Of a stretch of DNA of 64,000 nucleotides, positions 2,229 through 53,225 are shown one piece after another. Position 1 is the stretch's first letter. Every line of letters begins with the position of its first letter. The translations under genes were made by a program, and so were the position numbers. The notes under the pieces were generated by a model, which was given only the letters and a program-made list of their open reading frames with translations, did not search any database and was not told the DNA's origin. Source of the stretch: an uncultured Gammaproteobacteria bacterium (GTDB lineage Bacteria > Patescibacteriota > Microgenomatia > Levybacterales > UBA12049). Where the stretch lies: the NCBI GenBank assembly GCA_964521295.1, contig CAZFRF010000001.1, positions 7,751 to 71,750 on the forward strand, given 5' to 3'.

Positions 2229-3896
2229 ATGCTTAAAAAAGATTTAAAATTTGCTCCTAATTTCGAAAAATTATTTTTATCAGAAAAAGAAGAATATTTA
2301 TTAAAACCATTCTTTACCAATTTAGATAAAAATACATTTGCAGTTACCTTTTTACCTCCTGAAGTAATTGGCGCGCTTTGTTCAAGAACGTCAAGAGCAA
2401 AGGGAGATTTAAGGGTAGTTTTGCTTAAGGAATTTTTAGAGCCATTTGTAAAAGAAAAAAGTATTTATGGAAAATCTTTAAAAAGTTTAATTTCCTTTTT
2501 ACATAAAAATCCGATTGAACTTATTTTTTCAAATCCTAAAGGTAGAGAGTTTTATGTTAAATGGTTAGCTCAATATGGTGACGATTCAATTGCGCAAATG
2601 GCCGGAACTCATTTAGTTTTTAGCGCAATTTCTCAAATCGCTATTAAGCATTTTGAGGACATGAGGGTAGGTCTTGCTCCAATTGAGAAGTCTACTAGAT
2701 ATGTGGATTATTCTGCAAAAATAAATAATAAATATAGGTATTACACTGATCCAATTCTTAAAAAATTAGGTTTAGAAAAAGAATATAAAGAGGCAATGGA
2801 TAATTTATTTGATACTTATACAAAAATTATCACCCAATATTTCGCAATTTTAAAAATTAAATATCCTGATGAAAAAGACCAAGTCTTAAAGGCAAAAGCT
2901 TTTGATGTAACCAGAGGTTTATTGCCAATGGCAACACTTTCTCAAGTTGCATTTTTTGGTAATGGTCAAGCATATGAATATTTAATGGCAAGATCCTTAG
3001 ATCATAAATTAGGTGAAATTAAATTTTTAGCAGCTGAGGCTTTTGAAGAGTTGGATAAAATCATACCAGCATTTTTAAGAAGATCAGAAGGGGAAGCAGC
3101 AATGGAATATAGAGAATATTTAAATTTTAAAGATTTAGAACTAGAAAAAATAGTTAAAAAACTAAAAATTAAAAACGGAAAAATTAATAATACTTCAGAA
3201 ATTAAAATTGTAGATTTTGATAAAGATGGAGAAGACAGGGTAATTGCTGGACTTATATATCCTAAGCTGCATGTTTCTTATGAGGAGGCTTTTAAAATGG
3301 TTAAGAAAATGTCACAAAAACAAAAAAAGCAAATTTTAGATAGCGTTTTTTCGAAACGAAAAGCTAGGTGGTATAAAGTACCTAGAGCCTTTGAAAATGC
3401 TTTTGTAACTTTTGATATGACTTTAAATGCAGGCGCTTGGAGAGATTTGCATAGGCACAGAATGTTAACGCAGTTCAGGCAGAGATTTTCTATCTATAAT
3501 GGTTTCGATATTCCGGAAGATCTGAAGGGAACTGGACTTGATAAATTATTTATTTCTGCAGTTTCAAAGGCAGAAAAAGTATTTAAAAAAATTGAAAGAA
3601 AAGATCCTGATCTTGCTCAATATGCTGTAACCATGGCACATAGAGTTAGATTTTTACAAAAGCAAAATTTACGAAGCTTTTTCTGGCAATCAGAGTTAAG
3701 AACTACTTCTCAAGGTCATCCAGATTACAGAAAAGCAGAGCAGGAAAAAGCAAAGCTTGTTAAAAAGATTTATCCGCTTCTCGGAAATTATTTGATGGTT
3801 GATTTCAATGATTATGGTTTTGCTAGAAGAGGAACGATTGAAAAAATAGAGCAAAGAGAAAAAAAGCTTCTTAAAGAGCTTGCTAAGAAAAGTTGA
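2229..3896 (+). CDS. thyX: Flavin-dependent thymidylate synthase, long (~555 aa) form
   Basis: ThyX signature RHRmlTqfrQRFS (RHR...S..R-aromatic-S) and C-terminal NLRsFFwqSELRttsqghpDyRkaEQE resembling the ThyX NLRnwfhFlnLR...AqwEiR block. The listed ORF starts at 2205 inside dut; the ATG at 2229 just after the dut stop is the more likely start. Confidence 0.72.
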   Translation: MLKKDLKFAPNFEKLFLSEKEEYLLKPFFTNLDKNTFAVTFLPPEVIGALCSRTSRAKGDLRVVLLKEFLEPFVKEKSIYGKSLKSLISFLHKNPIELIFSNPKGREFYVKWLAQYGDDSIAQMAGTHLVFSAISQIAIKHFEDMRVGLAPIEKSTRYVDYSAKINNKYRYYTDPILKKLGLEKEYKEAMDNLFDTYTKIITQYFAILKIKYPDEKDQVLKAKAFDVTRGLLPMATLSQVAFFGNGQAYEYLMARSLDHKLGEIKFLAAEAFEELDKIIPAFLRRSEGEAAMEYREYLNFKDLELEKIVKKLKIKNGKINNTSEIKIVDFDKDGEDRVIAGLIYPKLHVSYEEAFKMVKKMSQKQKKQILDSVFSKRKARWYKVPRAFENAFVTFDMTLNAGAWRDLHRHRMLTQFRQRFSIYNGFDIPEDLKGTGLDKLFISAVSKAEKVFKKIERKDPDLAQYAVTMAHRVRFLQKQNLRSFFWQSELRTTSQGHPDYRKAEQEKAKLVKKIYPLLGNYLMVDFNDYGFARRGTIEKIEQREKKLLKELAKKS

Positions 3897-3920
3897 TAAA
3901 AAGCCTCATTTAGACTACAA

Positions 3921-50679: not shown

Positions 50680-50754
50680 ATAAAATTTACAAATGCAAGC
50701 TCAGCAGTAGATATTATAGGTTATTGTCGAGTTGTATATTTTTATGAAATAAAT

Positions 50755-50971
50755 TTGACTTTAAGCCTATAAGTGCTAAAATACTGAAGGCTAAGATGAC
50801 ATGACAAGTCGGAGCTCTAGGAAGAAAAGCAAATCTGCTAATTAGAACCTAGCGGGAAGTTCCCGAAATAGAACATAAGCGCAAAAAACGCTAGATTATA
50901 AAGTAAGGTGGTACAGCGTAAATCGCCCTTACAAGATACTAAAATTTGGTATTTTGTGAGGGTTTTTTATT
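50755..50971 (+). promoter_or_regulatory. PEPC leader: promoter TTGACT-16-TAAAAT followed by a ~180-nt RNA with a terminator/antiterminator expression platform
   Basis: Promoter at 50755-50782. Terminator stem CCCUUACAA(50926-50934)/UUGUGAGGG(50954-62) is 9 bp including one GU, followed by U6 (50963-68) directly before the ATG at 50972. The competing stem GUAAGG(50903-08)/CCUUAC(50927-32) overlaps the terminator 5' arm. The only SD-like GAGGG lies in the terminator 3' arm. Confidence 0.45.
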
Positions 50972-52480
50972 ATGAAAAAAAGAAAGATTCCAGCGACAAT
51001 GGTAACGCAGCATCCTGATCATGCTTCTAAACCGTATTGGCATTATAGGGCATATATAACGACCGAATACGAATCAAAAGAGGCTTATTTGTCGTTTGCT
51101 GAGTTAAATGCAACTGAATACAAGTGGGATTGGGAAGGTAAATTAGTTGATGAATCTGTTGTTGAAAGGTTTTTTGGAGAGCATTTTGAGTACTTCTCAA
51201 AAAATCCATTAGGAGAAGAAAAATTCTTAACCTTTAGGCTTCCAAATCCAAGAGTCGAAACAGAATTTAGGCTTTTAAGAGCGTTTATTAATATGGCCAG
51301 TGCTGGTTCAGTTGCTAAGCATTTTGGATTTACTAAGCCACCAATTTTTGAAGTAATTTTGCCCTTAACAGAAACTGCTGAGGAGATGTTGTCTTTGCAA
51401 GAAGCATTTGCCCAGATTCATAGTTTAAAACATCCCTTATTTAGATTAGAAGGTTTTTTAACCAATTTAAGAGTTATACCGCTTTTTGAAGATGTAACTA
51501 CTATTATTAATTCAGATAAAATCTTAGAAAAATATTTAAAGATATATAAAAAAAGGTTTAAAAAACTCCCTCCATATATGAGGCCATATGTAGCAAGATC
51601 TGATCCGGCTTTAAACAGTGGGTTAATTCCAACAGTTTTAGCGATTAAGATTGCCTTATCTCGTTTTAAAAAGCTGGAGAAAAAATTAAAAATTCCACTT
51701 TATCCTGTTATAGGTGCTGGGAGTTTGCCTTTTAGAGGTGGGATAAATCCAGAAAGTGTTGTTGATTTTGCAAATGAATATAAAGGTATAAGAACTGTAA
51801 CTATTCAGAGTGCTTTTAGATATGATTACCCTTTGCCAAAAGTTAAGGCCGCAATTGAATATTTAGAAACTAATTTAGTAAAACAAAAAGCAATAAATAT
51901 TTCTGAAAAAGAAGAAAAAGAGTTGCTTGGTTTAATAAGTGAGGGAAGTAAGCTTTATAAAAATTTAATTTCTGAAATAGCTCCAATAGTTAATTTAGTT
52001 TCCCAATATATTCCTCAGCGAAGAGAGAGATTTCAACATATTGGTTTGTTTGGATATTCTAGAGGAGAAAAAGGTGTGAAGTTGCCTAGAGCAATCTCAT
52101 TTACTGGTTCAATGTATTCATTAGGCATACCTCCGGAACTATTAGCCAGCGGTAAGTTAATCGAATATGCAATCAAAACTAAGAAAATCAAAGTTTTGGA
52201 AAAATATTATGTAAATATGCAAAAAGATTTAATAAAGTCTGGAAAGTATTTGAATAAAGAAAATTTAGTAATTCTTTCTCATAAATCATTAGTATTTAGC
52301 GAGATTTTAGAAAGTGTAGACTTAATTGAAAAATATTTAGGTAAAAAATTAGGTCCAACTACAATTTCAGAAAAAAAACATTCTTTATTATCTAAGAAGC
52401 TGTTGGAAAATGTTAAAAATAAGGAGTTAGCTAAGAAATATCTAAAGCAAGCAGCTCGATTAAGAAGGAGTATGGGTTAA
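50972..52480 (+). CDS. Archaeal-type phosphoenolpyruvate carboxylase (PEPcase type 2)
   Basis: N-terminal KIPATMVTQHPDH motif characteristic of archaeal-type PEPC; ~500 aa. Confidence 0.78.
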   Translation: MKKRKIPATMVTQHPDHASKPYWHYRAYITTEYESKEAYLSFAELNATEYKWDWEGKLVDESVVERFFGEHFEYFSKNPLGEEKFLTFRLPNPRVETEFRLLRAFINMASAGSVAKHFGFTKPPIFEVILPLTETAEEMLSLQEAFAQIHSLKHPLFRLEGFLTNLRVIPLFEDVTTIINSDKILEKYLKIYKKRFKKLPPYMRPYVARSDPALNSGLIPTVLAIKIALSRFKKLEKKLKIPLYPVIGAGSLPFRGGINPESVVDFANEYKGIRTVTIQSAFRYDYPLPKVKAAIEYLETNLVKQKAINISEKEEKELLGLISEGSKLYKNLISEIAPIVNLVSQYIPQRRERFQHIGLFGYSRGEKGVKLPRAISFTGSMYSLGIPPELLASGKLIEYAIKTKKIKVLEKYYVNMQKDLIKSGKYLNKENLVILSHKSLVFSEILESVDLIEKYLGKKLGPTTISEKKHSLLSKKLLENVKNKELAKKYLKQAARLRRSMG

Positions 52481-52481
52481 T

Positions 52482-53225
52482 ATGAATACTGAATGGGAAA
52501 GACATAAAAGAGCAGGAAGAATAATCGGAGGATTAGGCCGAAATGCAGATGTTCCGCCTCCACATAGTAGTCAGGGATGGGAGATTGGTGGTTCAAGCAT
52601 TAAAGTTGATGGTACTCATTTTCCATTGAGAAGGGGTATGCTTGAGATGGAGCTAGTAACAAAACCGGAAATATCGAAAATTAATTGGCTGGGAATAATG
52701 CCAAATATGCTTATGCCTGGCCATGGTGGAGAATACACGGTATATGGATTAGGCTTTCTTTTGGGAGAGCTACCTGCAAAGTTTACCTGCGGAACTCCTG
52801 ATATAAAAAAAATAATTGCTGAATATAGAGAAGGATCAAGTATAGAAATGGGTTTTAGAGATGGGGAAGAGAGGCAATACGATTTAAAGCATCAAAGAGA
52901 CCAGATGTTTTTTGCCATGGATTTTGCAACACCTGGTCAGGAAGATCATGTCTCTAGATTAACAATGAGAGGAAGAAATATTGGCGGTAATCCAAGCGCA
53001 TATACTTTAGACGTTCGATATCCAGATGAGGCTCTCGAAGGTGTAAGCGTATCGCTTTCCATTATTAATAGTCCTTTGAGTTATTTAAATTGGAATCCTA
53101 ATTTATTGCAATGGATTATTGAGCATCATTATTACAGTGGTCATGTAGAAAATCCTGCACTTTCTGCATTAGGTCTAGCTCCGTTAGTGCAGCAGGAAGT
53201 AAGAGCTGCGGTTAAAAACAAATAA
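52482..53225 (+). CDS. Hypothetical protein, atypical composition, translationally coupled to PEPC
   Basis: Start is 2 nt after the PEPC stop, with SD AGGAGT. Confidence 0.45.
   Translation: MNTEWERHKRAGRIIGGLGRNADVPPPHSSQGWEIGGSSIKVDGTHFPLRRGMLEMELVTKPEISKINWLGIMPNMLMPGHGGEYTVYGLGFLLGELPAKFTCGTPDIKKIIAEYREGSSIEMGFRDGEERQYDLKHQRDQMFFAMDFATPGQEDHVSRLTMRGRNIGGNPSAYTLDVRYPDEALEGVSVSLSIINSPLSYLNWNPNLLQWIIEHHYYSGHVENPALSALGLAPLVQQEVRAAVKNK

Follow-up and report, generated by a model that had tools for sequence, protein, structure and literature searches.

In the 64-kb stretch of contig CAZFRF010000001.1 analysed here (the window; 64,000 nucleotides), the gene for an archaeal-type phosphoenolpyruvate carboxylase (PEPC) is preceded by a leader RNA at positions 50789-50968, and we are confident that this leader is a T-box riboswitch specific for tRNA-Asp. 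That the leader is a T-box is almost certain. It very probably reads tRNA-Asp, and it probably acts mainly by transcription termination. It is a variant, with a new regulatory target, within the known T-box class, and not a new riboswitch class. A preliminary description of this DNA had seen a cis-regulatory leader in which competing antiterminator and terminator folds control PEPC, a general reading that proved right. It had also taken the aptamer, which it did not recognise, for a new metabolite sensor. This is not so, since the T-box model matches the leader end to end and the specifiers of related leaders track the family of the aminoacyl-tRNA synthetase (aaRS) encoded downstream.

T-box landmarks in the PEPC leader

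When the whole window was scanned with Rfam at gathering thresholds, no family reached its threshold. In a permissive Rfam search of 501 nt, the T-box family RF00230 gave a full-length match to 50784-50933 (29.6 bits, E 8.2e-5; threshold 93). The preliminary description had allowed for a hit to a known small RNA (sRNA); the sub-threshold match obtained is no such hit, RF00230 being a known family of cis-regulatory elements. In the RF00230 alignment all T-box landmarks are present except the distal Stem I, where 78 nt of the model are replaced in the window by 7 nt (the loop AUGACAA on a 4-bp stem). The score falls far below threshold because this whole distal part, which docks on the tRNA elbow, is missing. 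The elements of the leader, including a Shine-Dalgarno (SD)-like motif, are the following:

50789-50816, plus strand: ultrashort Stem I, with the basal helix G50789-C50791 paired with G50814-U50816 (Rfam alignment and our own covariance models)
50790-50815, plus strand: K-turn, GC-UAA-GA ... GA-GC, with a UAA bulge and tandem G50795.A50813 / A50796.G50812 (Rfam alignment)
50801-50807, plus strand: specifier loop AUGACAA, with GAC (Asp) at 50803-50805 and the conserved purine A50806
50817-50852, plus strand: Stem II with an S-turn-like, purine-rich internal loop; lower helix 50817-50821/50848-50852, upper helix 50828-50831/50836-50839
50853-50874, plus strand: Stem IIA hairpin and IIB pseudoknot; IIA 50853-50856/50862-50865, IIB GUUC 50859-50862 with GAAC 50871-50874 (read from the sequence)
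50878-50892, plus strand: Stem III, AGCG 50878-50881 with CGCU 50889-50892 and a 7-nt loop (Rfam alignment and folding)
50903-50932, plus strand: T-box sequence and antiterminator; helix A1 50903-50908/50927-50932, helix A2 50916-50918/50924-50926 (Rfam posterior near 1)
50925-50968, plus strand: intrinsic terminator, an 18-pair hairpin (50925-50963) and U6 (50963-50968), with the ATG 3 nt later
50958-50962, plus strand: SD-like GAGGG within the 3' arm of the terminator, 9 nt 5' of the ATG

The upper part of Stem I is a 4-bp stem (50797-50800 with 50808-50811) capped by the 7-nt apical loop, which resembles a reversed anticodon loop with GAC in the middle and then a purine. The 5' GA of the K-turn, which lies outside the search pattern used below, is conserved in 86/91 and 91/91 aligned relatives; at L068, one of the related loci (designated by L numbers), the K-turn is degenerate. 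The S-turn strands of Stem II read AAGAAA on the 5' side and AAUUAGAA on the 3' side, and the S-turn variant AUUAGAA (for AGUAGAA) is also found in 15 of the 91 relatives. Judged by eye over four sequence types, the IIB pseudoknot partners co-vary, being GUUC/GAAC in the window, UUUGC/GCAAA in L006 and L037, and GUGC/GCAC in L068 and L011. Stem III is absent from L006 and L037, and helix 6 covaries where present. The defining T-box sequence AAGGUGGUACAGCG lies within the antiterminator, which reads GUAAGG-UGGUACA-GCG-UAAAU-CGC-CCUUAC and whose 7-nt UGGUACA bulge occupies 50909-50915. Folding, as the preliminary description had proposed, showed the leader to be more stable than 200/200 shuffles (z = -3.6).

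Relatives upstream of PEPC genes

Scanning the PEPC protein against 185,579 species genomes gave 71 loci, nearly all from metagenome-assembled genomes (MAGs) of Patescibacteria, or candidate phyla radiation (CPR), namely Levy-, Roizman-, Davies- and Chisholmbacteria, Peregrinibacteria and Gracilibacteria. A covariance model (R1) was built from the window and the same-species locus L064 on a hand-drawn structure and iterated, and a broader model (R2) was made afterwards. The structure was drawn by hand because MAFFT, applied to the leaders, got the structure of IIA/B and the antiterminator wrong. Both models found the element once in the window and in 6 of the 71 PEPC loci, so that the conservation and covariation expected by the preliminary description upstream of PEPC orthologues do exist, at these six loci only. 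The regular expression GGTGGNA upstream of PEPC recovered four of the six and missed the two with an intervening aminotransferase gene.

Five leaders with GAC stand directly 5' of PEPC (the window, L064, L006, L037 and L068). The specifier loops read AUGACAA in L064, CAGACA in L006, CUGACA in L037 and CAGACA in L068, so that GAC and the following A are kept while the stem beneath varies. Three leaders with AAC (L004, L011 and L152) stand 5' of an aspartate-aminotransferase-like gene, which PEPC directly follows in L004 and L011; in L152 the contig ends first. The L004 and L011 loops, GCAACG or AAAACA, contain AAC (Asn) and a purine, and the gene at these loci encodes a class I/II aminotransferase whose best NCBIfam match is archaeal aspartate aminotransferase, below the model cut-off. 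Two of these leaders carry extra sequence. In L068 (Chisholmbacteria) an insertion of ~110 nt at ~2790-2900, with three GACUAG-containing repeats or hairpins, separates Stem IIA/B from the T-box sequence, and in L011 (1722-1775) the A2 loop is enlarged by tandem CAAAGUU-like repeats. A2 insertions are common in short-Stem-I T-boxes (PMC7583486).

Specifiers match the downstream synthetase family

A search with a Stem II pattern retrieved at least 120 stretches. In part of the sequence set the pattern fixed the S-turn and the K-turn 3' GA, and the invariance of these motifs therefore proves nothing. Among the matches listed, to which the counts of family members below also refer, most are GC-rich with the loops CCAUCA or CUAUCA (AUC, Ile), and the low-GC ones have GUC, AUC, GAC or AAC at the same loop position. 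This position holds the specifier codon in all members: GAC in CAGACA, CUGACA and UAGACA, AAC in UAAACA and GCAACG, AUC in CCAUCA, and GUC in CUGUCA. The codon agrees with the gene that follows. GUC and AUC leaders stand 5' of class I IleRS/ValRS-type genes (one GUC example is Pfam tRNA-synt_1), and GAC and AAC leaders 5' of class II AspRS/AsnRS-type genes. Two of these synthetases were tested, one GAC-linked and one AAC-linked; NCBIfam identifies each, above its cut-off, as aspartate--tRNA(Asn) ligase (non-discriminating AspRS). This match between specifier and aaRS family, like the sequence and structure elements and their covariation, was observed directly, and it confirms the frame in which the specifier is read. 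Since a non-discriminating AspRS charges both tRNA-Asp and tRNA-Asn with aspartate, GAC and AAC are interchangeable before genes of aspartate supply. Other readings of the window loop were discarded: AUG or UGA because the relatives' loops are CAGACA or CUGACA, and ACA because the aaRS-linked members set the codon frame and L004 and L152 have AACG.

The covariance models gave 91 matches overall, 84 of them distinct. In the alignment of the 91, which was fitted to the model and consists of related sequences, 96.2% of pair cells are standard, as against 70.9% in shuffles, and compensatory double changes occur in 27 of 33 pairs. Sliding the 3' partners by 1-3 columns brought pairing down to 23-53%. 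Helices 1-2 (Stem I) covary, helices 3-4 (Stem II) show double changes in 8/9 pairs, and helices 7-8 (antiterminator) are 98% paired with double changes in 9/9 pairs. All nine members tested against RF00230, the window and eight relatives, scored 30-48 bits for a threshold of 93, and standard annotation will therefore miss such T-boxes in CPR genomes. A bacterial RNase P class A in L118 (5884-6247; 64 bits, Rfam threshold 100) may be another reduced RNA overlooked by standard annotation.

The bulge of the antiterminator, whose fourth base pairs with the discriminator base of the tRNA, also follows the specifier. It reads UGGC in 14 of the 21 members with an Asp/Asn specifier and in 0 of the 65 with Ile/Val (Fisher p = 2.6e-11, the members being phylogenetically non-independent). 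At related PEPC loci, two tRNA-Asn genes encode the discriminator G73 and two tRNA-Val genes A73; tRNA-Asp carries G73. Two tRNA-Asn(GUU) genes, at L001 723-797 (minus strand) and L002 6947-7019 (plus strand), lie a few kb from PEPC at Levybacteria-like loci without a T-box.

Competing antiterminator and terminator folds

The alternative upstream hairpin of the preliminary description was recovered: GUAAGG (50903-50908) pairs with CCUUAC (50927-50932) and overlaps the 5' arm of the terminator. Since 50925-50932 belongs both to this arm and to the 3' side of helices A2 and A1, only one of the two folds can form at a time. Folded as a terminator, 50903-50970 has ~-26 kcal/mol (hairpin alone -22.8), compared with -8.6 for the antiterminator, and a terminator so much the more stable is as expected if tRNA has to stabilise the antiterminator. 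The terminator had been given as a 9-bp stem abutting the ATG; its U6 and its position stood, whereas the stem has 18 pairs. The SD-like GAGGG is present in its 3' arm, as had been stated. Three terminator-like sites were found in the scanned region, against 0.6 expected. That the hairpin ends an upstream gene was ruled out, the upstream gene being divergent on the minus strand.

Hairpins with a U-run recur across the family. In the test applied, a hairpin had to overlap the antiterminator 3' strand and end at most 3 nt from a run of at least 5 U; 27 of the 33 low-GC short-Stem-I members passed, 25 of them with a hairpin of -13 kcal/mol or below. At random positions of the same loci 10% passed, and 3.6% with the energy criterion, and the GC-rich ileS-type members gave 0/56. 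The arrangement AAGGGA, U6-7 and AUG, with SD-like purines inside the hairpin 3' arm, is found in L004, L006, L037 and L152. As these leaders and the window all hold such purines within the arm, translational masking may add to termination. In L068 a U7 tract is followed by ~30 nt with a separate GGAG and then by the start codon; with the GGAG outside it, the hairpin there can only act on transcription.

Proposed mechanism

Taken together, the T-box landmarks and the specifiers matching aaRS families point to uncharged tRNA-Asp as the sensed ligand, and not to aspartate, malate, acetyl-CoA or a nucleotide. We infer tRNA binding, a charge-dependent switch and actual termination, which would proceed as follows. 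Transcription would begin just 3' of the promoter-like site at 50755-50782, and the nascent RNA would form the minimal decoding module, which would pair with the GUC anticodon of tRNA-Asp. If the tRNA is uncharged, its 3' NCCA end would pair with UGGU of the 7-nt bulge and stabilise the weak antiterminator, so that RNA polymerase would read into PEPC and the GAGGG ribosome-binding site would be free. With charged tRNA, or with none, the more stable 18-bp terminator would form and transcription would stop at U6; in read-through RNA that stays folded in this way, the SD would be masked. The product of PEPC, oxaloacetate, is the direct precursor of aspartate, and low charging of tRNA-Asp would thus switch on the supply of aspartate precursor.

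Alternative explanations

Of the other ways to read the leader, a T-box that acts on translation only, with the hairpin as SD sequestrator and the U-run incidental in an AT-rich genome, is improbable, even though it has the precedent of published short-Stem-I T-boxes, which are translational (PMC7583486, PMC7778990). The GAGGG does lie within the hairpin 3' arm, 9 nt from the ATG, and T-runs are common in a window of 34% GC. However, 27/33 low-GC members have a hairpin with at least 5 U, for a rate of 10% at positions drawn at random from these loci, and in L068 the SD GGAG lies beyond the U7 tract, where the hairpin cannot mask it. The termination and translational modes are not exclusive, and both may operate in the window. 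That the leader is a new riboswitch which serves the anaplerotic node by sensing a small molecule (aspartate, malate, acetyl-CoA or a nucleotide) is hardly credible: the expression platform is typical of riboswitches and no Rfam family reaches threshold in the window, but the T-box landmarks are there, the same scaffold stands 5' of ileS-type and valS-type genes, and a metabolite aptamer would have neither a loop triplet that tracks the downstream aaRS family nor a bulge base that tracks the tRNA discriminator. Equally far-fetched is a ribosome-mediated attenuator with a leader peptide, or a protein-dependent antiterminator, that merely resembles a T-box. Alternative terminator and antiterminator hairpins would fit these mechanisms too, yet the leader has just two short frames, ATG-ACA-TGA and one of 14 codons (MTSRSSRKKSKSAN), and with no Asp codon in either of them a leader peptide was rejected; moreover, covariation spans the whole leader and not one hairpin plus a conserved peptide.

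Several observations weigh against a tRNA-Asp T-box that works by termination. The UGGU bulge of the window can pair with G73 only through a G.U wobble, and the window S-turn has U where a bulged G is usual. ARAGORN found no tRNA gene, and so no tRNA-Asp, within the 64-kb window. The Rfam T-box score is 29.6 where the family threshold is 93, only 6 of the 71 PEPC loci carry the element, and the covariation comes from related sequences aligned to the model itself. Finally, transcriptional T-boxes generally need the elbow platform and short forms are translational (PMC7583486), which weighs on efficient co-transcriptional capture of the tRNA.

The locus and the regulated gene

The interval 50680-50971 separates a divergent 173-aa open reading frame (ORF) on the minus strand from the 502-aa PEPC ORF on the plus strand. 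The features around the leader are:

50755-50782, plus strand: promoter-like site, with -35 TTGACT (50755-50760), a 16-nt spacer and an extended -10 TGcTAAAAT (50774-50782); 10/12 consensus matches, TG present
50972-52480, plus strand: archaeal-type phosphoenolpyruvate carboxylase, 502 aa, the regulated gene (PF14010, TIGR02751)
52482-53225, plus strand: 247-aa ORF, starting 2 nt 3' of the PEPC stop codon

The preliminary description had placed a strong promoter and a ~180-nt leader before an archaeal-type PEPC. Both were found: the promoter-like TTGACT-16-TAAAAT with an upstream TG is present, and the PEPC identity is backed by Pfam (PF14010, E 8.6e-137) and NCBIfam (TIGR02751, 478 bits for a cut-off of 146). 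Transcription is predicted from this sequence to start a few nt 5' of Stem I, and related leaders have similar -10 boxes, as read from their sequences, 8-12 nt 5' of Stem I. The contrasting remark that most genes here are near-leaderless is roughly supported by a crude count, in which a -10-like hexamer ends 5-14 nt 5' of the ATG in ~24 of 64 crudely called window ORFs; an SD-like motif precedes only ~6 of the 64. A tblastn search of the window found no AspRS and no aminotransferase.

The 247-aa ORF is probably co-transcribed with PEPC and hence under the same T-box control. It gave no match in Pfam and NCBIfam searches and was found in same-species contigs only (L064 and L192). A stretch upstream in L064 (13-759) is weakly similar to it, at 21% identity. 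A run of N, seen as X in the translation, splits the L064 PEPC gene (3001-3903), whose 301-aa ORF thus reflects a gap in the assembly and no real truncation.

PEPC proteins from L001, L007, L012, L014, L064 and others, whose records are titled uncultured Gammaproteobacteria, are 53-97% identical to that of the window. Levybacteria and other Patescibacteria MAGs fall in an overlapping range of identity, and L064 has the same GC content as the window (34%). Judging by these proteins, the 'uncultured Gammaproteobacteria' titles of such MAG records look like taxonomic mislabels.

Implications

Genes known to be under T-box control are those for aminoacyl-tRNA synthetases, amino-acid biosynthesis and transporters. 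Placed on PEPC, a T-box would extend this control to an anaplerotic step of central carbon metabolism, and would show how genome-reduced CPR bacteria fit the supply of aspartate precursor to the demand of translation. Where relatives have a non-discriminating AspRS, Asn-tRNA too is made by way of aspartate. The PEPC or aminotransferase-PEPC target, the coupling of so minimal a Stem I to an intrinsic terminator, and the host lineage are new, or at least unusual. The evidence leaves evenly balanced whether CPR bacteria use a T-box sub-class, not described before, in which a platform-less decoding module, known only from translational ileS leaders of Actinobacteria, is joined to a true terminator and controls aspS/asnS-, ileS- and valS-type genes, PEPC and aspartate aminotransferase. 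Such a sub-class would wire tRNA-Asp/Asn charging directly to the flow of carbon that leads from PEP to aspartate. Were it truly co-transcriptional, it would contradict the view that transcriptional T-boxes depend on the distal platform of Stem I for fast tRNA capture.

Comparison with known T-boxes

In a survey of T-box regulons from 2008 (PMC2494555), the words carboxylase, oxaloacetate, aspartate and aminotransferase do not occur. In the searchable literature we found no paper tying T-boxes to PEP carboxylase, aspartate aminotransferase, Patescibacteria or the candidate phyla radiation, which is no proof of novelty.

The closest relatives in structure are the ileS T-boxes with an ultrashort Stem I described for Actinobacteria (PMC7583486), class II in TBDB (PMC7778990), of which structures are available from Mycobacterium tuberculosis and Nocardia farcinica (6UFG and 6UFM; PMC7583486). 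With these the window leader shares the K-turn, a Stem I of 4-5 bp whose apical loop holds the codon and then a purine, the Stem II S-turn (GGAAGAAA ... AGUAGAACC), the IIA/B pseudoknot and a discriminator with a UGGN bulge. Indeed, the Stem II pattern retrieved dozens of GC-rich AUC leaders alongside the low-GC ones, and one covariance model fits both. As the GC-rich ileS-type leaders align to the same model, the decoding module of the window belongs to a known structural sub-class. The actinobacterial elements sense tRNA-Ile, regulate ileS and act by SD sequestration. The window leader, in contrast, reads GAC (tRNA-Asp), has a metabolic enzyme as its target and an intrinsic terminator, and lies in a low-GC, Patescibacteria-like genome. 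Class II is translational and without an intrinsic terminator, unlike the window, although the SD also lies inside the window hairpin and a translational component is possible.

Canonical transcriptional T-boxes (RF00230; Bacillus subtilis tyrS and glyQS) share with the window the T-box sequence and the competition between antiterminator and terminator, as well as a UGGN bulge that reads uncharged NCCA, a specifier with C in third position followed by a purine, and targets in amino-acid supply. They differ in a Stem I that is ~70-80 nt longer, where the specifier sits in an internal loop and a double T-loop platform at the distal end stacks on the elbow of the tRNA; the window has neither this long Stem I of class I nor a score at the RF00230 gathering threshold. 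The aspS/asnS T-boxes of Firmicutes have the same Asp/Asn specificity, and sister elements of the window leader also stand 5' of AspRS-type genes. The Firmicutes elements control synthetases, whereas the elements described here precede PEPC or an aminotransferase-PEPC operon.

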